Of a DNA stretch of 40,363 nt, positions 10,122 through 39,733 are shown piece by piece. Each line of letters opens with the position of its first letter. Position 1 is the first letter of the stretch. This stretch comes from a virus. A program made the position numbers and the translations under genes. Location of the stretch: IMG/VR virus record IMGVR_UViG_3300017691_000004, positions 1-40,363 of that record, one strand, 5' to 3'. The notes below the pieces were generated by a model. It was not told where the DNA came from. It saw only the letters and a program-made list of their open reading frames with translations, and did not search any database.

Positions 10122-10139
10122 CACTTCACCCTCCGTGGT

Positions 10140-10320: not shown

Positions 10321-10343
10321 CCGAACCTCCGTTGCGATAACCC

Positions 10344-10373: not shown

Positions 10374-10376
10374 CAC

Positions 10377-10658: not shown

Positions 10659-10676
10659 GTTGCGAATATTCTCAAA

Positions 10677-10789
10677 CGGGACAAATCGGGATTGTACCGG
10701 GACATGCACGGGACGTACCGCTGCGGAAGGTCCTTGACAACGGGACACTGTGGGGGCAAGGGTCTTTAGACCCTTCCCCCCTTGTCCCG
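10677..10789. repeat. Array of CGGGAC(A/G) heptamers (4 direct, 1 inverted) flanking a GC-rich hairpin; candidate iterons/origin or operator set
   Basis: cgggaca occurs at 10677-10683, 10698-10704 and 10741-10747, and cgggacg at 10709-10715. The inverted copy tgtcccg is at 10783-10789. Spacings between direct copies are 21, 11 and 32 bp. The hairpin ggggg-c-aagggtc ttta gaccctt ccccc is at 10752-10780. Confidence 0.45.
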
Positions 10790-10802
10790 GGGGACCGGGG
10801 CC

Positions 10803-25200: not shown

Positions 25201-26100
25201 CACCCGGGCAGTGCGGCCGGACAGGGCCGTGGCCATGTTGATCGGGGTGCCGGTCGCGGTGACGCCATCACGCCAGACGCTGGCACTGTTCAGCGCGCCG
25301 TTGGACAGCGCCGGCGCCGGGATGTGCAGCACCGCGTGACGAAAGCTGCCATCCGGCCAAGTGTTGCCCTTGTAGTCCACCTGCGTGGTGACCCGGGTGC
25401 CATTGGCCAAGCGGACGCTCAGCGCGTCGCCCGCATTCAGGTCGCCCTGGCGCATGGGCAGCCCGAAGGTGTGGACCGTGCCGGCCGGCGCGCCCGTGCC
25501 CTCCATCGGATAGGCGGCGAGTTGGCGAGCGGTGCCGGGGTCCACCGGGGTCACAACCTCGGTGATGGTCACCGGCAAGGTGGTGGTCACCGGATCAGCA
25601 CCAGGAAGCGTGTCGGTGAAGGTGAAATTGACGGTGCCGGGCGAGAACGCGATCCCGCCGCTCTCAATCACGGTCTGATTGCTGTTAGACCGATAGCGGG
25701 CGCGCCCATCGTTGGGAGAAAGCGCGGAACGCGTGGCGCCAGATTGAACGTTTGACACCACAAACAACGTGGTGCCTTCCGGCACCGCGTCGGCCACTTC
25801 ACTGCGGCTTGCTGGCGAGAACGTGGGGGGAACCAAGACGCCAGGCTCAGGAGTGGAGCCGCCACCGCCCGGCAAATAACCGCCATCGTCCAGAATTTGC
25901 TGCACCAGAGAACGCGCAGTGTCAGCATCGATCTTATTCGGCACCACGCCTTCCAGCGCGGCAACCCGCGCCGTGATTCCGGTCTTGGCCAGAATGGCCT
26001 CGGGAGACGTTTTCAGCGGTCCCTGCCCAACCTTGGCTACAGGAATAACATGCCCTGCATCCAGAACAGAAACCGGGGTTGCGTCAGTGATCTTTGCCAT
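22288..26100 (-). CDS. Large tail spike/fibre protein (1270 aa), putative glycan-degrading receptor-binding protein
   Basis: The N-terminus MAKITDATPVSVLDAGHVIPVAKVG has the common fibre/spike N-terminal pattern. The size and the position before the lysis cassette fit. The central region is rich in W/Y/H/D, as in carbohydrate-active domains. Confidence 0.7.
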   Translation of the reverse strand: MAKITDATPVSVLDAGHVIPVAKVGQGPLKTSPEAILAKTGITARVAALEGVVPNKIDADTARSLVQQILDDGGYLPGGGGSTPEPGVLVPPTFSPASRSEVADAVPEGTTLFVVSNVQSGATRSALSPNDGRARYRSNSNQTVIESGGIAFSPGTVNFTFTDTLPGADPVTTTLPVTITEVVTPVDPGTARQLAAYPMEGTGAPAGTVHTFGLPMRQGDLNAGDALSVRLANGTRVTTQVDYKGNTWPDGSFRHAVLHIPAPALSNGALNSASVWRDGVTATGTPINMATALSGRTARVEISNGSTTETFNCVAQLDSNRWFSGPLCAQTRQTFSPSRAAVGGNTNVDVLIDLATYSDGSILLEANPWNRRCFVPNMGDASFTLKIVGDNGFTKTLAITRSWLYSSVPLRARWDAQGQAVTDDAVIMKPDPEYVSPTGIIANYDKGLGILESKLQFYASKMGQSDWNTPYSNRDIQKDMGFSGARGDVGETTQPNAAWMISGDKRARAYAIGQAEAALGIPQHCFDFANGQWVNPIDRPYSRLFYQDPDFIESNGRRKYTDGQIDYSYGDWVVEEGHWPDSFTVPYAFTGRRSFLDGLLGQASYGVMKAAPNGSERGDLAQAAGNGSDTPAGKAARRAKLAELGEGANIVRGNQVRGQAWKRRQHQNVGALAPAAEQYGGLHQIISEASFRRHNARWAQLSAAQGPVLAGACEEWVYGDQGGQGAPWQMMMDAQMRVRGAFMKYEGAVENAQRICEMFIRLMQNQTGWFGADVSQYNLRFATPGGPTGAPLTAGTWTSTYAALGSYNGGGGITTRGDNFANVAVDVGNDYPLRLLALMYEYRNLCETFGLPTSGVETALSIIAGWPRGKTYTDNNTLRNDVDFSIVRYGQTRAAALTAPVVTSGQTASASTSATSSDAIKTIAYTGGAPAYGTVGSPYANVYEIRNGNVLYPKTDLSGQAPGTQVVPVSLTNAAGTSAVVNLSVTVSTAVVTPGTNIFGIDDGDIVEGWSFNRRLTTAYAANGEIARLQQDAETPIPVMMTDGVASRDAYLAAAGTKFVAKPVRVTGQFNGLHATTPYADAGRVIQNQALLSKLDGFVAVDFNGTQKLLVPGLNINSRGLGFVGVFLSQYGSNSAQRMVTFLATGQTHDYDNETSAGLIAMTYRVSTLRSKAGQFQQVEGAPFTANAMLAAGVGYTTDGNVFINAAGVVTDGAGGFTATFGAGALHIGNRGEGNQDAIAGQFVEGVLLKNPTKANVGTILANMRQKYGL

Positions 26101-26430
26101 TCAGCCGAACTCCACCAGGGAACCATCGTCCCATTGCAAAACGTTGGGTTGCAAATCAGCCAAAGCTTCGGCCACGGCCTGTCTCACAACATCAGCGATA
26201 TCGGTAATATCACCAATTAGCCCGCCTGGCGCTAGAACTTCATCTTCAGCAAGACCGCCCAATGGTGTTGAACCATCGGGCGTGTAGCCATCCGAGTTAT
26301 TGCCCTGTAAGTCCAGAAGCATCTTGGCTTCCAGACTTTGAGCGAGGGTCAGGCCTCCAGCGCCACGGGCAATCTTTTGCGCTTCGGTATCAAGCCTAAC
26401 CTGCGCCCCACGGCCTGGGTTTGGTGCCAT
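26101..26430 (-). CDS. Small protein, member B of the RGAQVRL-motif family
   Basis: MAPNPGRGAQVRLDTEAQKIARGAGG...DGYTPDGSTP. It lies immediately upstream of the 1270-aa gene and in the same frame, separated by one TGA. Confidence 0.6.
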   Translation of the reverse strand: MAPNPGRGAQVRLDTEAQKIARGAGGLTLAQSLEAKMLLDLQGNNSDGYTPDGSTPLGGLAEDEVLAPGGLIGDITDIADVVRQAVAEALADLQPNVLQWDDGSLVEFG

Positions 26431-26442
26431 ATCAGCAGCCTC

Positions 26443-27438
26443 CTAGCGGCCGTAGACGACGATGGTTACTGCGGTAGACGGCGCAGTCTCGAACGGACCC
26501 GCAGTCAACAGCAGCGTGCCCTTGGACCGCTTCACCAAGACAGTGCATCCGGTCAGAGTCTTAGCCGTGACGCCGCCACCCACATACTGATCGCTCACCC
26601 ACGTCGGGTTGATGCGAATGTCCAAGACCTCAGTAAAGGCGGATGAGAAGGTGAAGGTAGCGATGCCGCTGGTGTTGCTGGTGGCGGTGTAAATTTCGAT
26701 GCGAGTTGGAACGCCGGCAGGGCCTTGCGCACCAGTGGCGCCCGTCGCTCCCTGAGGGCCAGTGACACCCTGCGGGCCAGTGGCGCCCGTATCGCCTTTG
26801 GCGCCAGTAGCCCCGGCCGCTCCAGTGTCCCCCTTGGGACCAACAGCGCCTATCGCACCAACGTCACCCTTGGGACCGGTGGCGCCAACGGCGCCAGTCG
26901 CGCCCGTGTCGCCTTTTGGCCCAGTTGGTCCGACAGAGCCAGTAGCTCCGGTATCTCCCTTAGGGCCTGTAGCTCCAGCAGGACCGACAGCACCTGCTGC
27001 GCCAGTATCGCCTTTCGGGCCGGTGGGGCCAGCGGCTCCTGTCGCTCCGGTGTCGCCCTTTGGTCCAGTCGCACCAGTGGAGCCAGCGGGGCCGGTGGGG
27101 CCTACAGCGCCAGTATCACCTTTGGCACCAGCAGGTCCGGCAGCGCCAGTAGACCCGGTGTCACCTTTGGGACCAGTAGGACCAGCAGGGCCTTGGCTCC
27201 CAGCAATCCCTGTATCGCCCTTAGGTCCGGCAGGACCAGTCGCACCCGCCGGCCCCGGCACAGGCGCCTTCTGCTCCAACACCCCAACCCGATCCGTCAG
27301 CGCCAACCGCGCGTCACGACCGGTATTCAGTCGGTTCGTAACCTCGGCGAATGCAGCCGGGATCGGGTCCATATTGCCATGGGCAGCCTGCGCCGAGAGA
27401 ACGTCTACCGGCTTCACTTCATCAGGATTGTCGCTCAT
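26443..27438 (-). CDS. Collagen-like triple-helix-repeat fibre protein with a globular C-terminal domain
   Basis: About 60 uninterrupted G-X-Y triplets (aa 62-242), with the recurring unit GPKGDTG. The 90-aa C-terminus is beta-rich ([20 protein letters not shown]...). Confidence 0.9.
26713..27255. repeat. Coding tandem repeat (9-nt periodic G-X-Y region of the collagen-like gene)
   Basis: Repeated ggnccnaarggngayacngg-type units are visible on the minus sense. Confidence 0.85.
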
Positions 27439-27731
27439 GCCTGCCTCTGCTGAACGCCAGCCGTGTTGCGATAGAAGCCGCCGACAGGGACGCCAGCAGC
27501 CGCAGCCGCCGCGTCATTGGCCGCAATGGGGAACAGCGGCGTAATCAACGGGTCCAAATCAATCCCGCCATCAGGGTTCGGCTGACTGGGCGTTCCGTAG
27601 TTATCCAGCGTCGTCACGGCATTGCGAGCGTCCAGATTGCCCTCCTGCGAACCGCTCACCGCACCTCGCGCGGCAGCCTGTGCGACCCCTGACAGGACCA
27701 CTTGGGCGCCATGCCCACTATCGGATGCCAT
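27435..27731 (-). CDS. Small protein, member C of the RGAQVRL-motif family
   Basis: [27 protein letters not shown]...[11 protein letters not shown]. It has an ATGA overlap with the collagen-like gene. Confidence 0.6.
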
Positions 27732-27769
27732 TGCTGGATTCCTTTCGCGAAGATGAGTAAGCTAAGCCC

Positions 27770-27970
27770 ATGCCCGCCATGATCCTACAATGCGCCATGA
27801 CTTGCATCTTCTCTTTCGTCGGCTTCTGGTGGGCATACGATATGCCGAACACCGCAGCACGAACACTCGCCGCCGTTATAACAGGATTTGGCGGCATTTG
27901 GCTCACCATGTTTGCATGGGCATGGGTGCTGCACGGCTGGAAAGCCGCCCGCACCCTGTCCATGGACTAG
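27770..27970 (+). CDS. 66-aa two-TM membrane protein encoded antisense to the tail operon (moron-like)
   Basis: MPAMILQCAMTCIFSFVGFWWAYDMPNTAARTLAAVITGFGGIWLTMFAWAWVLHGWKAARTLSMD has two aromatic-belted hydrophobic helices. It occupies the 235-nt gap between two minus-strand genes. Confidence 0.45.
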   Translation: MPAMILQCAMTCIFSFVGFWWAYDMPNTAARTLAAVITGFGGIWLTMFAWAWVLHGWKAARTLSMD

Positions 27971-29703
27971 TCATTGATCTGCGCCAGCCCCTGCTGAGCG
28001 AGCAGGTTGTTCCGCAGGCCGGAGATGGCCTGGCGGGTGCCGGGGCGGACGGCCTGATTGCGCAGATAGGACTGCATCAGCGGGTTAACGTAGGCGGCGC
28101 GAGCAATGGCTGGCAAAGCCAGGCCACCAATGGCACCGACACCAGCACCAATCGGCCCGCCGATCATGGCGCCGACAGCCGAACCGCCAGCTGAGAACCC
28201 GCCGCCAGTCAAAAGCTGATTCATCTGCGTGCGGCCCGCCGTGCCGCTATCGGGTGGGGCACGAAGCACGCCCTGGCCAATACGCGCCAGCTCGTTTAGA
28301 TCACCCTGACCGCGCGCGTATCCTTGGCCGGTACTCTGGTTGACCGCGCTGCGGAGGGCCAGAGGACTGATATTGCCTTCAGCAGCCCCGGAACCAGCGC
28401 CGCCAACTGCTTTCTCAGCCACCATAAGGTTCGCATACTCACGCCGTGCTTGCTGCCACTCGGCCTGATCCGCCGGGCTGATGCTGTCGTCCATGGCAGT
28501 GCGCAGACGACCACGAATATCGCTCAAAGCCGACCGCAGGTCGCCGTTAGACGTGCTTCGGATATTCCGTCCAAGCTCACTATCAAGCTGACGGTAGGAA
28601 TAGCCAGGAACCGTTCCGATTACGCTATTTGGCGTGGTTACAGATCCAGTGGGGATCTGATTCGGAGTCATCATCCCACGAATCTGCTCAATCCGCGCGC
28701 GAATTGGACCACCCACCTCAGGCGTCAGAAAGCGCAAGCTGCCTTCGATATTCCGAAGGTCAGTATCTACACCAGAGGTGAAATTCATGGTGTTACGATT
28801 GGCCAAATCCCCAATCTGGCCGCCAATACGCGCTCGCTCCCGGTTCAACACGTCAGGGCCGGCATTGTCCGCCACAGCTCCCGCCCGACTGAGAACCGCA
28901 CGGTTAAATGCCTGCTGCTGCGTCTGAGCAAACGCCGCCTCAGCTCCAGACGTGCCGGGCAGCTGAGCAAACGATCCCTCCATGTTCTGAAGAACACGCG
29001 ATCCCGTCGCCTGCCCAGCGGACAGCGGAATGCCCTCCCGCTCAGCAGCCGCCACCAAGGCCGCCCGCGCCGGGCTGAGGGTGTTGGTCACAGGCGAGAT
29101 CAGCCGTGCCGCACCCGCAGCGCCAAAGGGCAGAGCTAGTGTAGCTGCTACACCAGCTAGCGGGCTATTCGTAGCTTCTCTTACTGCGCCGCCCAAGGCA
29201 CCACTAGCCAGCTGGACCACAGGCAGTGCGCTGAGAGAACTACCCACTCGTTCGAGAAGCCCCCCCGCCTGAGCATATCTGGACGCCCCAAGCGCGGGCA
29301 CCAAAGTCGCAGCCGCATCGACTGCGCCAGTCCCCGCCCCGTAGGCTGCCCGCTCCAAAGTCCCTTGAGGCTCAGGCGCCTTGCCGGTGATCCCACGGAT
29401 GCCACGTTGAATACTGGCCGAGCCACCAAACGCATCCTCTGGCACCGGCACGCCAATGGCGCGCAAGCCCTTGCCAGCCAGATCCACCGGAGCGCCCAGA
29501 ACATCAGACAAGCGGTCATTCACGCCAGCCGCAGCCTGCGTGGGAATCGCCATGGCCTGCTCTGCCAAGCCACGCTGTGGTGCAGCCTGCTCGGCCGGCA
29601 TGTTCTGCCGGAAGTATTTCAATACCTCATCCTGAGACGCCCCATCAGGCGCGGTGATGACGAACTTCCGGCCATCCGGTGCGGAGATTTCGAAATCAGG
29701 CAT
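27967..29703 (-). CDS. Putative internal virion / DNA-ejection protein
   Basis: A 578-aa ORF in a position analogous to the P22 ejection-protein genes. It has a Gly-rich hydrophobic C-terminal segment GGGFSAGGSAVGAMIGGPIGAGVGAIGGLALPAI. Confidence 0.45.
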   Translation of the reverse strand: MPDFEISAPDGRKFVITAPDGASQDEVLKYFRQNMPAEQAAPQRGLAEQAMAIPTQAAAGVNDRLSDVLGAPVDLAGKGLRAIGVPVPEDAFGGSASIQRGIRGITGKAPEPQGTLERAAYGAGTGAVDAAATLVPALGASRYAQAGGLLERVGSSLSALPVVQLASGALGGAVREATNSPLAGVAATLALPFGAAGAARLISPVTNTLSPARAALVAAAEREGIPLSAGQATGSRVLQNMEGSFAQLPGTSGAEAAFAQTQQQAFNRAVLSRAGAVADNAGPDVLNRERARIGGQIGDLANRNTMNFTSGVDTDLRNIEGSLRFLTPEVGGPIRARIEQIRGMMTPNQIPTGSVTTPNSVIGTVPGYSYRQLDSELGRNIRSTSNGDLRSALSDIRGRLRTAMDDSISPADQAEWQQARREYANLMVAEKAVGGAGSGAAEGNISPLALRSAVNQSTGQGYARGQGDLNELARIGQGVLRAPPDSGTAGRTQMNQLLTGGGFSAGGSAVGAMIGGPIGAGVGAIGGLALPAIARAAYVNPLMQSYLRNQAVRPGTRQAISGLRNNLLAQQGLAQIND

Positions 29704-31332
29704 TTACTGCACCGGGCGGATAGACCACCCGCCTCCCTGAGCGGAAGCTTGCGTGGTGGTCGTGGCTGGGGCCGGGCTGGATTCACCACCAGACCCGCGC
29801 CCCACCGAAGCCGGAACGTTGGTGAACGGCGACACGTCCGTTTCAGGCAGACCGTTCTCAGTGCGGCGCCGATTGATCAACTGCGTGCGGTAGCGAATCG
29901 CCCGCTCGTTCAACCGCTGCAATTCTTCCAAACGCTGCTTCACCACACCCGGTGAGTTGATGTTGTCCATCAGTTCAGCCGCCGCTCGCTGAGCATCGCC
30001 ATCCGTCTGCACGCCCTTGTTGAGGCGAAGGCTGTCATTGACAATGCGCGTCATGGTGGAGCGGTAAGACTGAAGGTTCCGGCTGTTCTCAGTGTCAGCG
30101 CCGAAGAAATTAGCGCCAGTATCGATGGCATTACTGACCAAGCCGAAGTTCAGCTTACCGCTATCGATCTGGCCACGCAGCGATGCCAAGTCGGACGAGA
30201 TGCCAGATGCCGTCTGAATGGCATCAATGTCCTCTTGCTCGGCCTTCTGAATGAAGGGCGGGATAGGAGCACCAGTCCGACGAGCAGACGCCATGGCGCG
30301 GGCCTGCTCAGGGTCAGCCGGGCCACCCGGAATTGCCTCAAGCCCACCTTCTGCGGTCGCCCGGTAACCCGGCGGAATACCTTCACGAGCCGCAGCGCGC
30401 CGCGCGGCCTCATCTTGGCGCTGAGCCGTCTGCTGCTGAAGCCGCAGCAACTCAGCCTGCCGAGCGTTGTCCGCAGCCCGATCAGCCGCCATGGAACTCT
30501 GCTGATTCATCTGCATCATCAGCCCCGGCACCGCACCAGGGTTGGTCTGAGCAGTCACAGCCAGAAGGCGGCGCTGTTCTGGCGTCAAGCCACCAGAAAC
30601 AGGCGCAGCGGCAGGCGGCGCTACGCCCTCATAGGCGCCATTGAAACCGGGATTAGCGCGGAAAGTCGTGCCAACTGGTTGCCCGGTCAAAGCACTGGCT
30701 CGCTGCATGCTAATCTGACGCATCGCCTCCTGCTTCTGCTCAGGAGTGAGGTTTGGATCTTCATTGATCCTATCACGCTCAGCACCAGCAGAAACGTTGT
30801 CGGCTCGCACTGCCTGACTACCGTTACCACCCTGATAGGTGCCGGGAGTAGCGGGGGTTACAGGTGCGGCGGATGGCATCGACACAGGCGTGTATCCCGG
30901 CGTCGCGCCACCCATAGATGCGCCACCAGCAGCAGGAACACCACCGAACAGGCCAGCCAACGCCTCGCTCTGGCGCCGCTTCTCTTCGATCTGCAACCGC
31001 TGAAACGTCGTCAGATCCGACGCCGCCACAGACTTCAGGCGCTCCAAGCCAGGGAACTGCTCGGGCAGATCACGGCCGAATCCGGCCGCCTGCAACCGCT
31101 GACGCTCCTGACCCCAAGCCGCTGCCGCCTGATCTTCTGGCATCCCGACCAGCTGGCGCGCCAAGCCAATGCGGGCCTCCGTATCCCGCTGATACGTCTG
31201 CTGCTGCTGGTCCTGCTGCGCGTTCTGCATCAGAAGCTGGTTGCGTTGAAAGCCTTGCACCTGAGCATCCACGCGCGCGGGATCGAACAGGATGTTGGGC
31301 GATGCAGACGCAATGGGGCCAAAGGTCGCCAT
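29704..31332 (-). CDS. Putative internal virion / DNA-ejection protein (Gln/Ala-rich)
   Basis: A 542-aa ORF with low-complexity Q/A/R-rich helices, coupled to both neighbours. Confidence 0.45.
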   Translation of the reverse strand: MATFGPIASASPNILFDPARVDAQVQGFQRNQLLMQNAQQDQQQQTYQRDTEARIGLARQLVGMPEDQAAAAWGQERQRLQAAGFGRDLPEQFPGLERLKSVAASDLTTFQRLQIEEKRRQSEALAGLFGGVPAAGGASMGGATPGYTPVSMPSAAPVTPATPGTYQGGNGSQAVRADNVSAGAERDRINEDPNLTPEQKQEAMRQISMQRASALTGQPVGTTFRANPGFNGAYEGVAPPAAAPVSGGLTPEQRRLLAVTAQTNPGAVPGLMMQMNQQSSMAADRAADNARQAELLRLQQQTAQRQDEAARRAAAREGIPPGYRATAEGGLEAIPGGPADPEQARAMASARRTGAPIPPFIQKAEQEDIDAIQTASGISSDLASLRGQIDSGKLNFGLVSNAIDTGANFFGADTENSRNLQSYRSTMTRIVNDSLRLNKGVQTDGDAQRAAAELMDNINSPGVVKQRLEELQRLNERAIRYRTQLINRRRTENGLPETDVSPFTNVPASVGRGSGGESSPAPATTTTQASAQGGGWSIRPVQ

Positions 31333-31988
31333 TAGTAGACGCCTCGCGTCTGGCTATAAGTCTGCGGCGCCAAAGCGTTCTGCTGCTGAAGGGCATCCGT
31401 CCGCTGCTGATACTGGTAGTTGTTCATCCCTTGCCCGATGGCGTTGCCGATGCCGGATGTGGTGTTGCCATAGATGCTGGCCTGCGCGCTTCCCAAGCTG
31501 GCTTCAGTCTGCGCGATACCGGCGGCCGCTTGTGCCCCAGCCGCCGCCGTGCCTGCCGCCGACGCCTGCCCAAGCTGGGTCATGCCCATCAGCCGGTTGT
31601 AGTAGGTCGTGAAGTCCTGATTGGCGAGGTTAGCGCCTAGCTTCTGCTCAGCCGCCAGCGTGGAGCCAGACCGCAGCAAACCACGCGCCGCAGCGCCTGT
31701 ATCGACAGCCTTAAGACCTTCCGATACCTGATAGCCATACCCAGGCGAGGACTGGAAATTGGCCATCGCCGTGTTAGCGGCTTCCTGCCCGTTCAGCCCC
31801 AGCAGGTTCTGAGCCGGGGCCAGAGCGTTGACGCCAGCCTGCGTGAATGGCGCCAGGTCAGCGCGCGTCTGGGCCTGTTGCCGCTCCTGTGCGGCAATCG
31901 ACTTGTCTGCGGCCTTGCTCGTGGCCTTGGACTGCAAAGCCCCACCCACAACGGTGGCAGCCCCTAGCGCGGCGGCGCCCCACGGCAT
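31332..31988 (-). CDS. Putative internal virion / DNA-ejection protein (Gly/Ala/Gln-rich)
   Basis: A 218-aa ORF with a hydrophobic N-terminus MPWGAAALGAATVVGGAL. Confidence 0.45.
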   Translation of the reverse strand: MPWGAAALGAATVVGGALQSKATSKAADKSIAAQERQQAQTRADLAPFTQAGVNALAPAQNLLGLNGQEAANTAMANFQSSPGYGYQVSEGLKAVDTGAAARGLLRSGSTLAAEQKLGANLANQDFTTYYNRLMGMTQLGQASAAGTAAAGAQAAAGIAQTEASLGSAQASIYGNTTSGIGNAIGQGMNNYQYQQRTDALQQQNALAPQTYSQTRGVY

Positions 31989-31991
31989 CTC

Positions 31992-32327
31992 TCAGCCCTC
32001 CATCTCAAGCTGGTGTTCTTCGTGAATATCCACGTCCTCGCCCTCAGCCATGGCGTGCAGGCAAAGCACCAGCGTGCCATCCACCAGCGTTTCGAAGCGA
32101 TGCTTGGCTCGCGCCGCGATCTGGACCGCACATGGAGCGGTGAACTCGCCCATGAACTCGCCGTCCTTCCAGATGGCGACAGCGCCAGCCGCCAGATAGG
32201 AGATGTGGTCGTAGGTGTGGGCGTGCTGAGGGATCACGGTGCCGGCCTTGGCGCTGAACATCTCCTTAACGAAGACGCCGCCATAAAGGTGGACGTTGCC
32301 GACAGGCTGTTGAGTGGCTTCCATCAT
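31992..32327 (-). CDS. Small cupin-fold protein
   Basis: GTVIPQHAHTYDHISYLAAGAVAIWKDGE...AKHRF fits the cupin motif 1 (H-x-H-x3-H/E) and motif 2 His. There is an ATGA overlap with the hydroxylase gene. Confidence 0.6.
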   Translation of the reverse strand: MMEATQQPVGNVHLYGGVFVKEMFSAKAGTVIPQHAHTYDHISYLAAGAVAIWKDGEFMGEFTAPCAVQIAARAKHRFETLVDGTLVLCLHAMAEGEDVDIHEEHQLEMEG

Positions 32328-32884
32328 GCTGCCGCATCCCTCAGAGTGATCACAAGATTAATCCTCTCCACATTACCAGCATTAGTGATGGAATGCGGCA
32401 CCAGATTATCGAATTCCCAGATTTCGCCCTCTCGGAACACCACTTCCTCATCCAAGGTCGTGTTGATGCACCGCACATTAGTCTGAAGCGGCACATAGAA
32501 CTTCCGATTGTAGTAACGCGCCGTCCAGGCGGCACCATCCGTGTGGGTCTTGATCTCGCCCCCTGCCGGAATGCGCGAGATGAGACAGGTTCCCAACTCG
32601 ACACCCCGAAACGTCGCCATGAGGTTGAAGGCAATCGGATGCACAGCCGATAAGGCGTGCCAGGCGTCATAAAACGCGCAATGACCCTCGCCCAGGTAAG
32701 ATTCCGGTCCAGTCAGCGTTTCGCGCGGGAAATACCGGAGCCAGATGTCCGATGTGCCCTGCATGGGGCCGTCATCCCGCTCCGTGCGCTCCCGATACTG
32801 GTCCCACAGCTCTGGCGCAGCGTTCAACTGCGCCATGATGGGCGAAACGTCCAGACCCTCATGCACACGGGCGAAATACTTCAT
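32324..32884 (-). CDS. Aspartyl/asparaginyl beta-hydroxylase-like (LpxO/ASPH family) 2OG-Fe(II) oxygenase
   Basis: ISRIPAGGEIKTHTDG...KFYVPLQTN...FREGEIWEFDNLVPHSITNAGNVERINLVITL parallels the family pattern L.PG..I.PH.g...rlr.HLgL...W.eG....FDds..H.v.N.....RliL. The start is at 32884 (TGATG overlap). Confidence 0.7.
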   Translation of the reverse strand: MKYFARVHEGLDVSPIMAQLNAAPELWDQYRERTERDDGPMQGTSDIWLRYFPRETLTGPESYLGEGHCAFYDAWHALSAVHPIAFNLMATFRGVELGTCLISRIPAGGEIKTHTDGAAWTARYYNRKFYVPLQTNVRCINTTLDEEVVFREGEIWEFDNLVPHSITNAGNVERINLVITLRDAAA

Positions 32885-33210
32885 CAGCCCAGCCTCACAT
32901 ACCACCGGACACCGCCTGCATCGGCCGCATTCGGTAGATTGAACGTCATGGAGCCGTCACCAGCGCCAAACGTCGTGCCGTAAAGCGAAAAAAGCCCCGG
33001 ATTGTCCTTCCGGCTCACAGCAGAACCGTCTGCACGCGCAAAAGCCTTGCCAGGATCTGACAGGCCTGCCGGAAATGGGTAAAAAGCGCCGACAGAGCCA
33101 AAAGAAGGATCGGATGCGACGCCCAATTGATCGAAAAACGCCGCCCAAGGCTCGGAAACGGTCTGTTTTCCTGACTCCGCCAGTGGTTCAATGGTGGGCG
33201 GGCGCAACAT
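32884..33210 (-). CDS. Short fibre with a phage tail-collar domain
   Basis: GAFYPFPAGLSDPGKAFARADGSAVSRKDNPGLFSLYGTTFGAGDGSMTFNLPN matches the tail-collar (MdpB-like) pattern P.G...cdG...s...yp.Lf..iG..yGgdg.ttF.lPd. Confidence 0.75.
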   Translation of the reverse strand: MLRPPTIEPLAESGKQTVSEPWAAFFDQLGVASDPSFGSVGAFYPFPAGLSDPGKAFARADGSAVSRKDNPGLFSLYGTTFGAGDGSMTFNLPNAADAGGVRWYVRLG

Positions 33211-34622
33211 CAGGACTCTCCAACCTGGATATCGGCATCTGCGCCATAGAACGTCACGATATCCTCAGCTTGCAAGCGCAAAACCCGCTGCCGAAAGCTA
33301 CCCATGCGCGTACTGAACACCCGCTTGCGGTGATCGCCAGACGCACCGCTGCTCATGAAGCGGGGTGTCGTGAAATCCCGCCCGCCGTTGTCCGACCAGT
33401 CCAACTGAATAGACGGATTGACTGCGAGAGTGCCGGAATCCAGCTCCACTTCGAAGCGGGACATGAACGCCCGCTTGGTATCAGCCCAGATCGGCGGGAA
33501 ACAGGCGATGCGTCGCAGCGTCACGCCCACGTCGTTGCGAGTTTGCGGGTCCAAGCCAAACACCACGGCGCTGAATCCATCGCCAAAGATCGCCGTGCCA
33601 CCGAACTGGGCTGAGCAATCTGCCCGCCACCGCCCCGCCCCACCCGCGCCACTGGCCCGCCGATGCCATTGCTTGGTGGCGGCATCGTAAACCCAAGTCC
33701 GACCCTCAGATCCATCAGCGCGCTGAAAGCTCAAGGCATAGAAGTAATGCCCCGTTTGAGAATACGCCAATCCAGAGGTAAACCGCACCTCGCCAAAGTC
33801 GCGAATCCATTCCTCAATGGCGTGCGTGCTGATCCTCTGGGCCGTGTACCCACTGGACCGATAGATGATACCGTTGGTGCCCAGCCAGACGAGCGAGTTA
33901 TCGAACTCCGCCACCGTCGCCGCATTGGACGTGCCAAATGGAATATCACCGCCAGACCGCCGCTCGAATGGAGCATTGGCGTTGCCGGTGACGAACCACA
34001 CCTCAACGCCCGTCTCACCGAACAGCCACAGCTCGCCACGATGGAACATGGCTCTCTTCAGCACATTCGGGCGCGCATCGGCACTGGCGAAGGACAGACC
34101 ATCATAGGTGTCAGCGTCCAGCAGGTTCGACCAGAAGAACTGATCGCTCCCGATATCATCGGCCGTGAACACCCAATACCCGGCGATGTAGGTCACGCTG
34201 GATGCGCCAGGGAACGGCTGATCCGAAGTTCCGGTAATCTGACGCAGAGTGGAAGATGCCGAGTGACTAGCCACCCAAGCATTCGGCGGAATACACACCA
34301 CCACCGTGGTTGGTCCCACAGCAATGGTGGGGCGTCCTGAACCGGTGACGGTGCCGATGGACACCGCCCCACCCTCGGCCGTGTAGCGGATGAACTGGTT
34401 TCCAGCCACGGCATAAAGCCTGCCGGGCTGGTCGGAATTCAAAGCCCGGATGGCGCCAGTCTCGAACGTGAAGACAGCCGCCAAGCCTGGCGTGCTCTTG
34501 ATGATGGCCTGCGAGCGCGCTTCCGGTGGGGCCTGCTCCACATAGAGATTGACCAGATCCTGCGCATCCGCCGGCAGGCTGTTCAACTCGTAGGTCTGGG
34601 TCGGGAACGGAATGCGCTGCAT
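33210..34622 (-). CDS. P22 gp10-like tail hub protein
   Basis: It is 470 aa (P22 gp10 is about 472 aa, recalled from memory). The N-terminus DLVNLYVEQAP...STPGL, the mid region ELWLFGETGVEVW and the C-terminal end RVLRLQAEDIVTFYGADADIQVGES parallel the gp10 layout as I remember it. Confidence 0.65.
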   Translation of the reverse strand: MQRIPFPTQTYELNSLPADAQDLVNLYVEQAPPEARSQAIIKSTPGLAAVFTFETGAIRALNSDQPGRLYAVAGNQFIRYTAEGGAVSIGTVTGSGRPTIAVGPTTVVVCIPPNAWVASHSASSTLRQITGTSDQPFPGASSVTYIAGYWVFTADDIGSDQFFWSNLLDADTYDGLSFASADARPNVLKRAMFHRGELWLFGETGVEVWFVTGNANAPFERRSGGDIPFGTSNAATVAEFDNSLVWLGTNGIIYRSSGYTAQRISTHAIEEWIRDFGEVRFTSGLAYSQTGHYFYALSFQRADGSEGRTWVYDAATKQWHRRASGAGGAGRWRADCSAQFGGTAIFGDGFSAVVFGLDPQTRNDVGVTLRRIACFPPIWADTKRAFMSRFEVELDSGTLAVNPSIQLDWSDNGGRDFTTPRFMSSGASGDHRKRVFSTRMGSFRQRVLRLQAEDIVTFYGADADIQVGES

Positions 34623-37156
34623 TACGGCTCCTGCGGACGCGTTGCCGCCTCCTCCAGCTCAGCCACACGGCGCCGCAGGCCCTGAACCACCGGCCACAGC
34701 AAGGCCAGCATCTCGTCAGAGCGAAGCCCCATCAGATCAGCCTCGGGGTCATGCACGAAGCCAGCGAAGTCCTCCGTGTCGATACCTTGCTCGTCCAGAA
34801 CGCGCTTCACATCCTGCGCCACGAAGCCGGTATGCAGGCGCTTGCCATCCTTCATGCGATAGGTGCTGGCGGGAATCGCGTCCACCAAGGCGCCAGCGGC
34901 ATTCTCAGAGAGAGGCGTAATGTCCCGCTTCTCCCGCTCATCCGACGTGTTGATGGTGCCAGAGGCTGCGTAAATCTGGGTCCATCGGAACGATGCCGCG
35001 CCGAGAGAGAAAGAGTTGTCGGTCTCAGGCAACAGCAACGCCGTCGTCGTGCGTGCCGCCGTCAGATGGATGGTGCCGGCGCCAGGCGTGCCATCGATAC
35101 CGCCATCCGCCGAGATACGGGCATCGTACAGGTTGCCATTGCCGCCCGTGCGGAAGTCAACGACACGGACGCCAGTGTCCTCGTTGCCTAGCGTCAGGTT
35201 GCCCTGAATGGCAGCATACTGCGCGTTGATAACGGCGTAGGGGAGGGCTGTCGTGCCGATGCTATACATACCAGCACCGAGAGGCAGCAGGTTCGGCGTG
35301 TTGATGCGCGCGGCTTCGACAGTCAGAGTACCAGCGCCAGGCTGGCCATTCGTGCCGCCACTGGCCAAGAGACGAACGTCATACTCGTTGTTGTTGCCGC
35401 CCGTGTGGAAATCCACGGCGCGCGGTCCCAAGTCAGCGGTGCCAATCTCCAAGTTACCCTGGATCGAGGCATACTGCGTGTTGATCTCAGAGTAAGGCAG
35501 GCTAGGCGTGCCGATAGTGGCTCCACCAGCGCTCACAGGCAGCAAGTTGCTGGTCGAGACGTTGCGCGCCTGAATCAGCAGGTTGCTACTGCCGGTCTGC
35601 CCCTGAGTGCCGCCGCTCGCCAGCAACCGTACATCGAAGTCGTTGTTCAAGCCGCCGACATGGAAATCGTAGTAAGAGCCGCCCTCGGCCGTGTTACCAG
35701 ACGAGAAGTTATCCGCCACTACAGAGCGGACATACAGCGTGTCAAAACGCGCCTGAGGCGATCCGATGCTATAGAAGTTGGTGGTGCCAGGCAGAATGTT
35801 GGTGGTGATCAAATTCCCAGCATTGAACACCATGTCGCCCAGGCCACTGGTGCCGTTCACACCACCCTGCACCTGAATGCGGGCATCGAAATCATTGGCA
35901 GCGAAACCGCTGCTGTGGAAATCGATGTAAGGCGTCGTCGCCAGATCGCGCCGGCCATGCTCAACATTGCCGTCCGCCGTGATGCGATAGGTCGGAAAGC
36001 CGTCCGGCCGGAACTCGAACGGCGTGCAGTTGACCTTTTCGACATACAGGCCGAACTCAGGCCCGGTGCCATAGTTCTCAATGCTGAAGCCCGCCCGCAC
36101 AGCGCCCTGGACGCGGAAGGCGTCATAATAGGGACCGCGCGAATAGTACCCCACCCACGAACCGAACGAGCCGAACGCCACGGCATCATAGGCCGTCAGG
36201 CGCGGATACTGGGTGGCAGGATCGAAGGGCGCTTGATCGTTGATCGTGCCAACCTCAAAGGCATGGCCAACCCGCGCCGTACTATTCGGGTACAGCGAGA
36301 CATTGGCGTTCATGGCCCAGACAGAGGTAATCACACCGACATTCGCCGCCACACCATTCGGCGGTATCTGCCCGGATGACGTGTTGCCGGTCTGATACCA
36401 CCCGGACACGTTAATCCGCCCGGCAGACCACCCCACAACACGCCCGCTGAACTTGGGCGAGTGCAAGGTATCGATGATCATCCCAAGCTTGAGCTTGGTG
36501 AAATCGATGGCATTGCTGAAGGACACGGAGGTGGCGGTGTAAGTGCTGCCAGCATCGGTCGTGTGAACCGGCGGCGGCGCGATGTTGTCCGCATACAGCG
36601 CCACGCTGTCGCGCTCGGTGTATTCAGCCATCTGCTGATCGCTGGTGAAGCCCAGCACACCAGCGCGCCGCTCAGGGTCGCCGTGCAGGCAAATTGCGTA
36701 ACCCGCCGCCTGATCGTAGGTGCCCCACGTCGTGCGGTTGCGCCGCTCAGACCGCAGCACAGTGCCGCGCAGCAGCCCTTCACCGCCCACGATGGTGGCG
36801 CCACTGACCATGTGCCAGTTGACCTGCCGCCCCTGGGTATCGACGGGCTGACTGATCGCATATGCGCCTTCCGGCACAACAACGTCCGTCGCCTCGTTGC
36901 AGGCCGCCTGGAACGCCGCAAAGTCATTCGTGCTGCCATCGCCAAGCGCGCCGTAGTCCTTCACGCTGACGGTATCTGACAGCTTATCCTGCACCGGCCG
37001 TGTGGTGCCAGAAACGACCAACTTATTCAGGACGTAGCCAGCAATCTGCGCCGGGCTAACCTTATAGGCGTGGGTTCCATCATCCAGCGGGATGGCGCCT
37101 GTATCTTGTAGATTGCCCGGATATGGATTCAGGTCCGGGATGCGAACATTAGTCAT
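34622..37156 (-). CDS. Tailspike: pectate-lyase-superfamily domain, four ~85-aa repeats, and a C-terminal S74 intramolecular-chaperone domain
   Basis: VSVKDYGALGDGSTNDFAAFQAA is the pectate_lyase_3 signature. TSDEREKRDITPL...HTGFVAQDV...LRSDEMLALL is the S74 self-cleaving chaperone signature. Confidence 0.85.
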   Translation of the reverse strand: MTNVRIPDLNPYPGNLQDTGAIPLDDGTHAYKVSPAQIAGYVLNKLVVSGTTRPVQDKLSDTVSVKDYGALGDGSTNDFAAFQAACNEATDVVVPEGAYAISQPVDTQGRQVNWHMVSGATIVGGEGLLRGTVLRSERRNRTTWGTYDQAAGYAICLHGDPERRAGVLGFTSDQQMAEYTERDSVALYADNIAPPPVHTTDAGSTYTATSVSFSNAIDFTKLKLGMIIDTLHSPKFSGRVVGWSAGRINVSGWYQTGNTSSGQIPPNGVAANVGVITSVWAMNANVSLYPNSTARVGHAFEVGTINDQAPFDPATQYPRLTAYDAVAFGSFGSWVGYYSRGPYYDAFRVQGAVRAGFSIENYGTGPEFGLYVEKVNCTPFEFRPDGFPTYRITADGNVEHGRRDLATTPYIDFHSSGFAANDFDARIQVQGGVNGTSGLGDMVFNAGNLITTNILPGTTNFYSIGSPQARFDTLYVRSVVADNFSSGNTAEGGSYYDFHVGGLNNDFDVRLLASGGTQGQTGSSNLLIQARNVSTSNLLPVSAGGATIGTPSLPYSEINTQYASIQGNLEIGTADLGPRAVDFHTGGNNNEYDVRLLASGGTNGQPGAGTLTVEAARINTPNLLPLGAGMYSIGTTALPYAVINAQYAAIQGNLTLGNEDTGVRVVDFRTGGNGNLYDARISADGGIDGTPGAGTIHLTAARTTTALLLPETDNSFSLGAASFRWTQIYAASGTINTSDEREKRDITPLSENAAGALVDAIPASTYRMKDGKRLHTGFVAQDVKRVLDEQGIDTEDFAGFVHDPEADLMGLRSDEMLALLWPVVQGLRRRVAELEEAATRPQEP
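34961..35926. repeat. Four tandem ~255-nt coding repeats inside the tailspike gene
   Basis: The repeats start at aa 411 (IDFHSSG), 497 (YDFHVGG), 581 (VDFHTGG) and 666 (VDFRTGG). Each has the form DFH.GG..N.(F/Y)D.R(L/I)...GG..G..G.G......A....T.NLLP......(S/T)(I/L)G.... Confidence 0.8.
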
Positions 37157-37184
37157 TGGACCTATACTCCACCAACGGGTTTGA

Positions 37185-37808
37185 TCATGCGTACTCTACA
37201 GTCTGGCCATCTTCCCACAACAGCACCGTCCCGTCATCCCAAAGCACAGTATTAGGGCCAACGATCACTTCGCCGTCGCCATCTCCCGGATCTTCCCCAC
37301 CGCCGTCCCCTGGGTCTTCACCACCACCACCATCGCCCGGACACGGCACGACAATAATGCCGCTGCCTGTGTCCAGATAATACCCATCGGACGTGGTAAG
37401 AGCGCAGCCAATGATGTCGTTTGTGCTGCTGAAGCGATGACCATAAGCCGCCATCACGTTGATGACGCCAAAGGCCACCACGGAAGCTTCTGAGGAATCA
37501 CCCAGCGTTACACGCCAAGGGATCTGCCCTCGGCCATCACGCGTCGTGAAGCCCATCATGTCAAAATAGAACTGCCCGGACTCAAAGGACAGAAATGTGC
37601 CGTCCCTCGAATACCCCCGGCCATCACCAAACGAGAAATACGCCGCCATACCCGACGTATTGAGCGGGGTCGTATCCCCATCCCGCTCATAGACGGTAAT
37701 GAGCAGCCGGACCTTCTCACCCGATGTGATGATGAAATTGCGCTGCGGCGGGGCTTCCAGCGGGCCGTAGGTGCGGCACACCGCGAACGGCAGGGTCCGG
37801 CCAGCCAT
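37185..37808 (-). CDS. Hypothetical virion protein with a short Gly/Asp-rich tandem repeat
   Basis: A 207-aa ORF containing PGDGGGGEDPGDGGGEDPGDGDGE near the C-terminus. It shares base 37808 with the upstream gene. Confidence 0.5.
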   Translation of the reverse strand: MAGRTLPFAVCRTYGPLEAPPQRNFIITSGEKVRLLITVYERDGDTTPLNTSGMAAYFSFGDGRGYSRDGTFLSFESGQFYFDMMGFTTRDGRGQIPWRVTLGDSSEASVVAFGVINVMAAYGHRFSSTNDIIGCALTTSDGYYLDTGSGIIVVPCPGDGGGGEDPGDGGGEDPGDGDGEVIVGPNTVLWDDGTVLLWEDGQTVEYA

Positions 37809-39376
37809 CAGAAGTATTCCACCCGCGTCATCTCGCCCGTGGTCGGCAGGACATTCTGCTGGATGATCATGCGCTCGCCAGCCACCCAGTCATTCGGGTT
37901 CGGCGCCTGCAATGCGACTGGCGCCATGAGAACCGTGGCCATCATCACATACGGTTCCTCAATGCCAGGCGGGATATCCACCAACAGCCAGCGCGTGCGA
38001 CGGCGTCCAGACAGATTGGTATGCACATCGCGGATCTTCTGCACGGCAATGGCCAGTCCCACTGGCCCACTCAAGATCATCAGACGGGCGGTCTTCATCG
38101 CGGCATCCATAGCCGCCGGGTCACGCGCGCCACCATACACGGGCGCCAGCTTGGCAACCGCGATGCTGGTGATGGCGTCACCATAGGCCGAAGGCGTCTG
38201 GTCAATAGGCCACGTTGCCAGACCCTGCGCCACCAGAGCGCTATAAGCCGATGCCACTTCTGCCTCAGCCTGCTCCTGTGCCTTACGTCCCTGCACGTTC
38301 ACACGGATGCGCTGCAAGGCAGCGGCATACAGATCCGGCGTTTCTGGCCGGCCCAGCATCGGACCAAGCTGCACGGCAGCGGCCGAGATCACATCGGCCG
38401 CCACGCTATAGGGCGTCGCATCCACCGGCCAATCCGCGACACCAGCATTGACCAGCGCATCATGCACGGAGCGGACTGCGTTGTAAGCCTCGATAGAACC
38501 ACGCTCGCCCAGCATCTGAGCCAGCCGAATCCGCTCTTCAGCAGCCCCAGCGTCCAGCTTCATGTCAGCGTTGTAGATCGGCGCCAGATAGGCAGCCACG
38601 ATCACCTCAACGTCGGCTGCAAACGCGGCAGGCACCACATCGGAGCTCCAATCCGCCAAGCCCCGCCGGGCCAGGGAGCTGTGAACCTCAGTGACCTTCG
38701 CCTCGGCCAAAGCCTGGCCACGGCCGCCGGTCAGCGCGACAGCGCGCGCCTCCTGCATGATCGCGGCATAATTCGAGAACTCGGACACCTTACCGAAGCT
38801 CGGCGCCAGCAGGTTGGCGGCCAGCATCTCATAATACTGCGCCATATAGCGCGGGGTCGTATCCACGGCCCAAGTGGCGATAGCGCCCGCTGTCAGACGC
38901 TCGTGAATGTCCACAATGGTCGTGAGTGCCGCATCTTGATCCACTGGAGAGGGGTTCTCATCCGATGCGATGATGCCTAGGCGCCGCAATGCTCGAGTGG
39001 CCAGCGCAGCCCCCGTCACGGTCGCCGTGGCCAAGCCAGGGGAAGCGGGATTCACGCCCACCATGCGCAGTGCGCGGGAAGCCACCTCAGCGCGCGAGAC
39101 AGGGGCACTCTGCGCGCCAGCCTGCTCAAACGGAACCGCCATGACGCCAAGGTGGCGCAGCACGGAGGCGCCCATCTCGGCCAGCGTCCGGGTGCCAGAC
39201 AGGCCAGCACGGTCGGACGGATCAACAACAGTCACGCCAAGGCGGCGCAGAGCCTGTGAGGCCATGCTCGCCTTGGTCGTCGTCCCGGCATCAGTCGGCC
39301 GGGATGTGCCCGCCACCAGCGATAGTCCCAGCCTTTGAAGAACTCGCTGGCCTAGAGTCTCGACGGTGACGGGCAT
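37808..39376 (-). CDS. P22 gp4-like tail adaptor with internally multiplied motifs (522 aa)
   Basis: There are five N-terminal ALRRLGV-type motifs: LQRLGLSLV, ALRRLGVTVV, VLRHLGVMAV, ALRMVGVNPA and ALRRLGIIAS. Five later modules end in LAP..G: LLAPSFG, YLAPIYN, QLGPMLG, KLAPVYG and LMAPVAL. P22 gp4 (about 166 aa, from memory) has one AALRKLGV and one RIAPDY. Confidence 0.55.
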   Translation of the reverse strand: MPVTVETLGQRVLQRLGLSLVAGTSRPTDAGTTTKASMASQALRRLGVTVVDPSDRAGLSGTRTLAEMGASVLRHLGVMAVPFEQAGAQSAPVSRAEVASRALRMVGVNPASPGLATATVTGAALATRALRRLGIIASDENPSPVDQDAALTTIVDIHERLTAGAIATWAVDTTPRYMAQYYEMLAANLLAPSFGKVSEFSNYAAIMQEARAVALTGGRGQALAEAKVTEVHSSLARRGLADWSSDVVPAAFAADVEVIVAAYLAPIYNADMKLDAGAAEERIRLAQMLGERGSIEAYNAVRSVHDALVNAGVADWPVDATPYSVAADVISAAAVQLGPMLGRPETPDLYAAALQRIRVNVQGRKAQEQAEAEVASAYSALVAQGLATWPIDQTPSAYGDAITSIAVAKLAPVYGGARDPAAMDAAMKTARLMILSGPVGLAIAVQKIRDVHTNLSGRRRTRWLLVDIPPGIEEPYVMMATVLMAPVALQAPNPNDWVAGERMIIQQNVLPTTGEMTRVEYF

Positions 39377-39382
39377 ACTCGG

Positions 39383-39733
39383 TTACTTCTTCGCTCGGGG
39401 AACGGTCTTGGCATCGCCCTCAGTGGCAGGCGGGTCCTTCGCGTCAACGCGCGTGGTGCCCTCCTCAGCCGGGGTCTTGCCACCCGCGTCAGCCTCAGTG
39501 GTCACAACCACATCAGCCGCCGGCTTGCCCGTCAGGGTGGAGCCATCCGGGGTGCTGCCATCGGCAACGGTCCCGTCCGCTTCCAGCGCCTTCTTGGCGA
39601 GGGTGTTTTCCTCGATATCGCCACCCATCCCACCGCGCGCGGCCATCTGGGCCTCGCCGGTCAGACGGACCTGGGCGCCACGGCTCGGAAGCCGCTCACC
39701 CTCAAGCTTGACCTTCGGTTCAGCCATTGTCAT
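39383..39733 (-). CDS. Small protein, member A of the RGAQVRL-motif family, directly downstream of the capsid gene
   Basis: ...LPSRGAQVRLTGEAQMAARGGMGG...DGSTPDGSTL. AAGGAGG lies upstream of the ATG. Confidence 0.6.
   Translation of the reverse strand: MTMAEPKVKLEGERLPSRGAQVRLTGEAQMAARGGMGGDIEENTLAKKALEADGTVADGSTPDGSTLTGKPAADVVVTTEADAGGKTPAEEGTTRVDAKDPPATEGDAKTVPRAKK

Follow-up and report, generated by a model that had tools for sequence, protein, structure and literature searches.

The nearest solved relatives of the hydroxylase considered here are enzymes of free amino-acid metabolism, L-proline cis-4-hydroxylase (4p7w) and proline 3-hydroxylase (1e5r/1e5s), which are proteins of 280–290 aa. 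Its own Pfam family includes human ASPH, whose TPR domain holds EGF-domain substrates, and the lipid A hydroxylase LpxO. Small single-barrel cupins such as TM1459, KdgF and the cellulose oxidative enzyme 9bwf are free-standing or secreted, act on small molecules or polysaccharides and have no 2-oxoglutarate (2OG) oxygenase as partner. Here we describe a locus in which both types of fold are encoded side by side among the virion genes of a virus. The window, which is the whole 40,363-nt stretch that was analysed (IMG/VR record IMGVR_UViG_3300017691_000004), contains a hydroxylase gene (HYD, 32324..32884) and a cupin gene (CUP, 31992..32327) directly 5' of a gene for a P22 gp7-like ejection protein (EJ1, 31332..31988), and PHROG and Pfam scans identify the region as the late operon of a P22-like podovirus, on the minus strand throughout. 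We show that the hydroxylase and the cupin are an obligate pair and that this module is fixed at the head of the ejection-protein block. Whether it serves that block by modifying an ejection protein is, in our judgement, an even question.

HYD is a PF05118 2OG/Fe(II) oxygenase with a predicted intact active site. The 186-aa protein matches Asp_Arg_Hydrox at E 4.1e-10 and 40.2 bits (cut-off 22.6), the domain is present in 23 of 23 close homologues, and H114-x-D116, H164 and R174 are invariant in alignments of 20–23 homologues reaching down to 28% identity. A GTG start at 32905 would also be possible, but the homologues all begin MKYF, which places the start at the ATG at 32884. The AlphaFold model is compact and globular (pLDDT 94.8, pTM 0.91), and its top Foldseek match is L-proline cis-4-hydroxylase (3.9e-10, TM score 0.65), with a nucleoside-antibiotic beta-hydroxylase of about 170 aa, ASPH and proline 3-hydroxylase among the other close folds. 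A profile of the family, compared with PDB sequences, ranks these relatives similarly (4p7w 6.4e-9, 1e5r 1.1e-5, ASPH 2e-3) and aligns H114, D116, H164 and R174 with the metal ligands and the 2OG-binding Arg of 4p7w and 1e5r. HYD therefore shares with the proline hydroxylases a double-stranded beta-helix and the HxD...H...R spacing; it differs from them in being much shorter and about 17% identical, in always having a cupin or GNAT partner and in its location within a virion operon. The comparison with ASPH is of a similar kind: the Pfam family is shared, the TM score is about 0.6 and the His/His/Arg positions align, but ASPH has a two-His site that reads H-T-G where the profile alignment gives H-T-D and hence a full triad in HYD. 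No TPR domain was found in HYD by Pfam scan or in the model, and no EGF-like domain family in the ten neighbouring window proteins that were scanned. HYD is under strong purifying selection (ratio of non-synonymous to synonymous substitution rates, dN/dS, of 0.035 against the closest relative, L010, with dS unsaturated) and is the most conserved protein of its neighbourhood, being 75% identical to its counterpart in L004, whereas the tail hub reaches 41% and EJ1 67%. A preliminary description of this DNA had recognised a PF05118-type oxygenase with an ASPH/LpxO layout at this position; the oxygenase and the family assignment hold, while the motif is that of the proline hydroxylases and not the HxG site of ASPH.

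The family shared with LpxO had also suggested that HYD might remodel lipid A or other membrane lipids of the host, in the manner of LpxO or OlsC, and a weak local match to the LpxO model (E 5e-4) points in the same direction. HYD fails the LpxO equivalog model NF033391 by a wide margin, however (19.1 bits against a cut-off of 500), is half the length of LpxO and is soluble, with no hydrophobic or transmembrane segment anywhere in the protein (maximum 19-residue Kyte–Doolittle mean 1.29). Its obligate cupin or GNAT partner has no part in lipid A chemistry and the module is integrated in the operon rather than moron-like. We therefore regard a lipid target as highly improbable. HYD also gives a weak match to TIGR04531, ‘nonproteinogenic amino acid hydroxylase’.

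CUP, a protein of 111 aa, is a small cupin with a predicted four-His metal-binding site, as judged from its alignments and modelled structure. The AlphaFold model is a cupin barrel (pLDDT 82 overall, 83 to 97 in the barrel) with Foldseek matches to 9bwf, KdgF, TM1459 and the epimerase MarH. With TM1459, KdgF and 9bwf it has in common a single barrel of about 110 residues and an HxH...H...H site, at an identity of 13–21%. H35, H37, H41, H76, C89 and H91 are invariant in the alignments, in agreement with the cupin metal site that the preliminary description had read here. That description had also expected matches to both PF05118 and PF07883 (Cupin_2); the former was obtained, while CUP itself scores 22.4 bits with Cupin_2, under the cut-off of 27.2, and it is relatives of CUP that exceed it (P0030 and P0033; fused domains at 32–44 bits; gp02 of phage Xoo-sp2 at 40 bits). 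Purifying selection on CUP is again strong (dN/dS 0.016 against L010). The C-terminal tail is disordered, acidic and His-rich; the possibility that its conserved HEEHHLxxEG sequence serves universally for docking or as a substrate was rejected, since distant HYD-linked cupins lack this motif.

The two genes are translationally coupled to each other and to the genes on both sides; the first two of these junctions had been described before. The stop codon of the upstream tail-collar gene overlaps the start of HYD in TGATG (32886..32882), the HYD stop overlaps the CUP start in ATGA (32327..32324), and the CUP stop lies 3 nt ahead of the EJ1 ATG at 31988. All three junctions were read directly from the sequence, as was the GGAGGG Shine–Dalgarno sequence of EJ1 (31996..32001, minus strand), which falls within the final CUP codons (…E M E G stop). 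The last of these codons (GAG ATG GAG GGC TGA; 31992..32003, minus strand) contain the GGAGGG, and this overlap may explain the conserved C-terminal ‘EG’ of CUP in close relatives. We found no promoter-like site in the virion-gene block from 26000 to 40363, terminator-like sites were not above chance there, and there is no break in composition over 26000..38000. The possibility that the module is a moron or horizontal insert was dropped, given the lack of promoter or terminator signals above chance, the even composition and the coupling on both sides. The module is thus an enzyme pair within a virion operon, and the preliminary characterization of it as an unusual phage modification module stands.

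Homologues of HYD are metagenomic and numerous, with an exhaustive profile search returning 2,597 representatives at E<=1e-3, 723 at <=1e-10 and 118 at <=1e-30 (these and other family counts are of clusters at 50% identity). About 25 loci, of phages or prophages, contain the HYD–CUP pair. A search with the hydroxylase alignment, reaching down to 35% identity, found the cupin directly 3' of HYD in all but one of 14 IMG/VR loci, and the adjacency was also present in several long metagenomic contigs and in three loci from bacterial genomes (L027 of Acidisoma silvae HW T2.11, an Aliidongia metagenome-assembled genome (MAG) and a Pseudomonadota MAG). The sole split pair found is in L014, where an insert of about 1 kb with two open reading frames on the opposite strand separates HYD from the cupin (10558..11545). 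Bacterial genome contigs yielded four loci when scanned with the cupin alignment and no confirmed match when scanned with the hydroxylase alignment; the fourth genomic locus, L026 from an Acetobacteraceae MAG, is a degraded remnant that retains only the cupin. Its four-His cupin (9968..10543) reads into some 85 residues that resemble, by eye, the start of a GNAT protein; the hydroxylase is absent and the surrounding genes are non-phage hydrolases. Megablast of 31000..35000 against GenBank phages gave no match, and tblastn of the window CUP against phages gave none at 1e-3.

Gene fusions provide a further indication of partnership. The hydroxylase precedes the cupin in P0069 and P0120 and follows it in P0080 and P0093 (domains assigned with Pfam) and in P0133 and P0183 (read from the sequence). 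Fusions with a GNAT domain likewise occur in both orders, as HYD–GNAT in P0150, P0171 and P0176 (Pfam) and as GNAT–HYD in P0075 and in P0073, which was assigned by homology (43% identical to P0075). Such fusions in both orders are hard to blame on sequencing error and indicate a physical or pathway partnership of HYD and the cupin. A GNAT gene, and not a cupin, follows HYD in Pseudomonas phage PfAn1 and Limnohabitans phage DC33, and in L044 a GNAT–HYD fusion is followed by a four-His cupin and then by the ejection gene. Two other arrangements were observed. In L028 (793..2016; P0177), HYD is fused to an N-terminal domain of about 220 aa and lies directly 5' of an ejection-like gene whose product starts MPW; a sulfotransferase identity for this domain was rejected, the Sulfotransfer_3 match of 15.6 bits being below threshold. 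On the JGI contig of P0080, one structural block contains the cupin–HYD fusion, a separate PF13640 2OG oxygenase of the prolyl-4-hydroxylase type and a Tlde1-domain protein, which indicates that some podoviruses hold several oxygenases among their virion genes.

Across the loci, it is the gene downstream of the module that stays largely constant. The upstream neighbour is variable and may be the collar gene, a gene for a 56-aa or a 422-aa protein, or an endolysin-like gene. Among the fetched loci, the collar was detected immediately upstream in only seven, which represent six distinct sequences (the window, L004, L010, L012, L014 and L015), and is replaced by other genes in, for example, L006, L008 and L017. 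Downstream there is almost always a gp7-like protein or one that shares its hydrophobic, Ala/Gly-rich N-terminus, and this rule holds across podovirus backbones, including those with a different (SU10-type) adaptor and with non-homologous downstream proteins. A profile of EJ1 homologues matches P22 gp7 at 1.3e-7 as well as gp38 of phage Xfas53, annotated as ‘similar to P22 gp7’, and the annotation of Xfas53, which names equivalents of P22 gp10, gp7, gp20 and gp16, gives the frame gp10/slot/gp7/gp20/gp16. In the P22 record this slot, after the tail hub and needle genes and directly 5' of gp7/gp20/gp16, is occupied by gene 14 (‘head morphogenesis’, DUF2824), and the earlier view that only structural genes are expected here was in consequence too strong. 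The role of gp14 is poorly defined and it has no detectable sequence similarity to HYD, CUP or the GNAT partners: for gp14 (PF11039) the cupin profile gave an hmmsearch E value of 0.6, and BLAST and hhalign against the GNAT partners were not significant. A likeness of gp14 to GNAT proteins, noticed by eye, was rejected (no BLAST match, hhalign probability 0.7%, and only a glyoxalase-like match by phmmer against the PDB).

Being part of the ejection-protein block, HYD and its cupin or GNAT partner might themselves be packaged in the capsid and injected, and might then modify some host protein or neutralise a defence system. Related ejection blocks do hold enzymatic cargo, for example transglycosylase domains in PfAn1, RSK1 and L006 and, in Vibrio phage VvAW1, the giant DarB-like antirestriction protein gp01 (L030, 7510..12363). 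The latter takes the third ejection-protein position, which shows that enzymes are carried as cargo in the ejection-gene blocks of this phage group. Set against this, none of the 150 best members of the HYD family is fused to a long ejection protein, the partners being only cupin, GNAT and one unknown domain of 220 aa, and packaging would be unnecessary as Fe(II), 2OG and O2 are present in the cytoplasm at any stage. On balance, we consider injected effectors unlikely.

The proteins that occupy the slot in phages without the hydroxylase suggest that the cupin fold is tied to this position. With a distant family member as query, a cupin homologue was found in 51 cultured-phage records, none of which contains the hydroxylase. 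Nine of ten inspected records (VvAW1, X14, RSK1, P26218, SnaR1, Amaethon, MW202867, MW202674 and MW202744) have the homologue in this slot, where it overlaps or directly adjoins the gp7-like gene. Eight of the nine are short-tailed phages and the ninth, a metagenomic genome, was deposited as Myoviridae sp.; three are Manatee Spring genomes. The slot proteins match the cupin profile (hmmsearch 1e-11 to 1e-19), but the full four-His site, present in all HYD-linked cupins, is present in none of the nine. Lys, Arg or Ala takes the place of the His at position 35 and Arg that of the His at position 76, and in the P26218 and MW202744 proteins there is a Gln at position 37 and position 76 is missing. 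VvAW1 gp04, RSK1 ORF13 and X14 gp38 (phrog_12032/phrog_24280) are cupin homologues that occupy the slot of CUP and overlap the start of the gp7-like gene; they differ from CUP in lacking at least two of the four metal His and a hydroxylase partner, and proteins of these two PHROGs carry helical extensions or a SET domain. The match to SET (PF00856), a fold of protein lysine methyltransferases, is above the cut-off in MW202744 (27 bits) and sub-threshold in its homologue P26218 gp30. The two fused genes are at 3932..4807 of L034 (Rhodoferax phage P26218 gp30), labelled in GenBank as a hypothetical protein (RSK1 tail-fibre-like), and at 2444..3205 of L040 (MW202744), labelled ‘PBCV-1 histone H3-Lys27 methyltransferase structure’. 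In MW202867 (L035, 1938..2345), a Cys-rich 135-aa ‘high potential iron-sulfur protein’ with no Pfam match is encoded directly 5' of the pseudo-cupin. The only homologue with four His and no HYD is Xoo-sp2 gp02, which comes from a siphovirus and an unrelated early-gene context. Within the slot, therefore, the complete four-His site goes with HYD and a metal-less fold is kept without it, which points to a role of the fold that is tied to the slot and extends beyond catalysis. A non-catalytic relative in the slot, together with fusion partners that modify proteins, argues for a virion or ejection-protein role rather than a metabolic one.

These relatives carry annotations that bear on a different explanation, namely that the cupin is itself a component of the virion or tail and that HYD modifies it or matures its metal site. 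CUP matches phrog_12032, ‘short tail fiber protein’, at 9.8e-6; the cupin family matches both phrog_12032 and phrog_24280 (7e-15 and 5e-13 for the L017 member), and VvAW1 gp04 matches phrog_12032 at 2.9e-42. The two PHROG labels, of which the second is ‘tail fiber adhesin’, would favour this explanation, the fusions with HYD are compatible with an enzyme–substrate pair, and the HEEHH tail, which is disordered and conserved, could reach into an active site. We found no experimental basis for either label in the record notes or in the two papers on these phages that we checked, however; the notes on the PHROG-labelled members go no further than ‘putative phage protein’ or ‘unknown function structural gene’, and no mass spectrometry is reported in the X14 genome paper or in another paper on these phages. 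Moreover, the tail motif is not shared by the distant HYD-linked cupins and the invariant four-His site looks catalytic or metal-binding and not merely structural. This explanation is, in our assessment, improbable.

If an ejection protein is the substrate, the gp7-like protein that follows the module offers a specific site. EJ1 begins MPWGAAALGAATVVGG, and its N-terminal tryptic peptide is PWGAAALGAATVVGGALQSK; across loci, the downstream protein has the N-terminal pattern M-x-[W/F/V]-[G/A]-A-A-A. A Met-Pro start was found in 21 of 23 HYD-positive loci and in one of 11 HYD-negative loci, with position 2 being Ser, Ala, Thr or Leu in the other ten. The Pro2-positive loci include otherwise unrelated downstream proteins as well as the fusion loci L041 and L044, which were examined later as a check. 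For the first 32 loci (19/21 versus 1/11), Fisher's test gives a P value of about 1e-5, in which shared ancestry is ignored. Given the specificity of Met aminopeptidase, removal of Met1 would expose the Pro with a free secondary amine, as in free proline. As the nearest solved relatives of HYD are free-proline hydroxylases, the most specific hypothesis that the data permit is hydroxylation of the N-terminal Pro of the gp7-like protein, and we put forward tentatively that HYD hydroxylates Pro2.

We propose that, in the cytoplasm of an infected host, HYD and the cupin would operate as a single unit and share one substrate. Being expressed late with the other genes of the virion operon, the module would modify an ejection protein post-translationally before that protein is packed into the procapsid, the leading candidate site being the N-terminal Pro of the gp7-like protein once Met1 is removed. 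HYD would add the hydroxyl group, and the cupin might perform or assist a second metal-dependent step or might bring HYD to its target. Other phages have a GNAT acetyltransferase beside the cupin or in its place. That the substrate is a protein, that the protein is an ejection protein and that the site is Pro2 are each inferred, and all three are to be taken as candidates. A broader form of this proposal, which we hold as a possibility only, is that the slot is a dedicated site for enzymes that modify ejection proteins: HYD and CUP would here hydroxylate, and possibly process further, the N-terminal Pro of the gp7-like protein, as would be needed for assembly or firing of the ejection conduit, and elsewhere the slot would hold a GNAT, a SET methyltransferase or a dead cupin.

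Several observations weigh against modification of an ejection protein, or against Pro2 as its site. The Pro2 correlation lacks phylogenetic correction and has exceptions: PfAn1 and DC33 have HYD and GNAT, yet their ejection proteins start MV and MG, whereas the Xfas53 ejection protein starts MPW without HYD. The cupin–HYD fusion P0093 is on a Mor-containing contig and has no gp7-like neighbour. The annotation of the P22 record states that the first 20 residues of gp7 are cut off by a host protease, and if EJ1 were cleaved in the same way an N-terminal modification would be absent from the virion. The analogy of the module with gp14 is positional only, and position cannot separate modification of ejection proteins from co-packaging with them or from a permissive insertion site. 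On members of these families, our literature searches turned up genome annotations only. Finally, free amino acids are the substrates of the nearest characterised relatives, and this is just as consistent with a small-molecule substrate.

The last point leads to a pathway in which HYD hydroxylates a free amino acid or metabolite, the cupin or GNAT carries out the next step (isomerisation, oxidation or acetylation) and the late operon merely provides high expression. The best solved relatives of HYD are hydroxylases of free L-proline and pipecolate, the weak match to TIGR04531 is in keeping with them, and the nearest folds of CUP are small-molecule or carbohydrate enzymes (KdgF, the MarH epimerase and TM1459). 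Sets of a hydroxylase, a cupin and a GNAT are, moreover, typical of small-molecule pathways, an example being EctD, EctC and EctA of ectoine synthesis. A pathway of this kind would not readily account for a module that is fixed 5' of the ejection gene across unrelated backbones and translationally coupled, for the retention of metal-less cupins in the slot in many phages without HYD, or for the fusion of one slot group to a SET protein methyltransferase, and no other pathway genes are nearby. We judge a small-molecule substrate to be rather unlikely, though a serious contender to modification of an ejection protein.

A target among the fibres, the other role suggested in the preliminary description, was examined through the collagen-like gene that lies in the same strand block. 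This fibre is real (26443..27438; PF01391, 5.5e-29): we counted 61 contiguous G-X-Y triplets, against the approximately 60 reported earlier, with seven GPKGDTG units and with Lys in Y and Asp in X ten times each, as had been described. Collagen lysyl hydroxylases use the Y position and giant viruses encode collagen hydroxylases, so hydroxylation of Lys or Pro in this fibre, or of other tail fibres, by the pair would have a parallel. PBCV-1 prolyl 4-hydroxylase (5c5t) and mimivirus L230 are virus-encoded 2OG oxygenases that perhaps act on virion proteins, as HYD might; they are of the P4Hc type, however, which is another family, and a viral collagen hydroxylase is only a distant fold match of HYD (Foldseek rank 28). 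PF05118 is not the family of the known collagen Pro/Lys hydroxylases, and no P4Hc or 2OG-FeII_Oxy_3-type domain was detected, Pfam giving only PF05118 and the sub-threshold Cupin_2. Nor does HYD co-occur in a conserved manner with collagen-like genes. Scanning up to 10 kb of flank per locus for runs of at least eight triplets detected G-X-Y runs in only five of the loci scanned (the window, L012, L023, L021, where the run is short, and L008, where it is the minimal eight triplets), most pair loci having no collagen-like gene within that distance; the fibre gene of the window clusters with that of only one other locus, and the collar neighbour is variable too. Hydroxylation of fibres by the pair is accordingly very unlikely.

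The remaining genes of the operon conform to the late region of a P22-like podovirus, and all those given here are on the minus strand. The capsid gene (PF13252) is at the end of the window and is cut by it; genes for a 522-aa and a 207-aa protein come after it in the gene order. A tailspike with a C-terminal S74 chaperone domain (34622..37156; PHROG and Pfam scans) is followed by the P22 gp10-like tail hub (33210..34622; phrog_578, 3.3e-97, ‘head closure Hc3’/Phage_stabilise), homologues of which bear PF11134 and for which the equivalence with gp10 was taken from the Xfas53 and P22 annotations. Between the hub and HYD is the 108-aa tail-collar-domain protein (32884..33210; PF07484, 9.7e-12). 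Downstream of the module, EJ1 (218 aa) matches phrog_598, ‘DNA ejection’, at 2.9e-28. A second ejection or internal virion protein occupies the P22 gp20 position (29704..31332), as assigned by synteny with Xfas53 and P22; it had no family match in the PHROG and Pfam scans and belongs to a cluster that it shares with five loci. The third, in the gp16 position (27967..29703), matches phrog_26400, ‘DNA ejection protein’, at 3.6e-38. The ejection genes are followed by two small open reading frames, the collagen-like fibre, a 1270-aa fibre/depolymerase gene and a lysis cassette.

Some further features of this region were noted. Inside the tailspike, a repeat of about 90 aa (‘DFH.GG.NN.YDVRLLASGGT.GQ.G’) occurs three times, after a pectate-lyase-like N-terminal part and ahead of the C-terminal S74 domain, an intramolecular chaperone. 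The 1270-aa protein (22288..26100) has a PcRGLX-like RIFT-barrel match (PF19501, 23.8 bits) and is probably a second depolymerase-type fibre, so that this phage may carry two receptor-binding enzymes in addition to the collagen-like fibre. Two genes for proteins of 116 and 109 aa (39383..39733 and 26101..26430) appear to be paralogues, with the motifs ‘RGAQVRL..EAQ..ARG’ and ‘DG.TPDGST’; each lies immediately 5' of a large fibre or spike gene and their cluster is found in six loci. A C-terminal ‘L.WDDG..V’ motif is present in the products of both 26101..26430 and 37185..37808. The small paralogue-like proteins may be fibre adaptors or chaperones.

Both folds, and virus-encoded 2OG oxygenases, are already known. 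We found no description in the searchable literature of an obligate hydroxylase–cupin (or GNAT) module, of its fixed position at the head of the ejection block, of its catalytically dead relatives in cultured phages or of co-variation with the second residue of the neighbouring protein, and a review of ejection proteins that we checked for such terms mentions no enzymatic maturation of them. The ejection proteins of short-tailed phages are poorly understood, and the module, which is widespread (118 clusters at E<1e-30 and 723 at E<1e-10), provides a concrete candidate substrate and site. Should the substrate prove to be a metabolite instead, the module would still be new, as a common auxiliary pathway of environmental podoviruses. 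If an ejection protein is modified as we propose, the module would be the first enzymatic system for post-translational modification to be described for the ejection proteins of phages and would tie the infectivity of these phages to the availability of O2, Fe and 2OG. It would also explain the persistence of inactive cupin-like proteins under an unverified ‘tail fibre’ label in cultured phages and would offer a way into the question of how ejection proteins are made ready for packaging.

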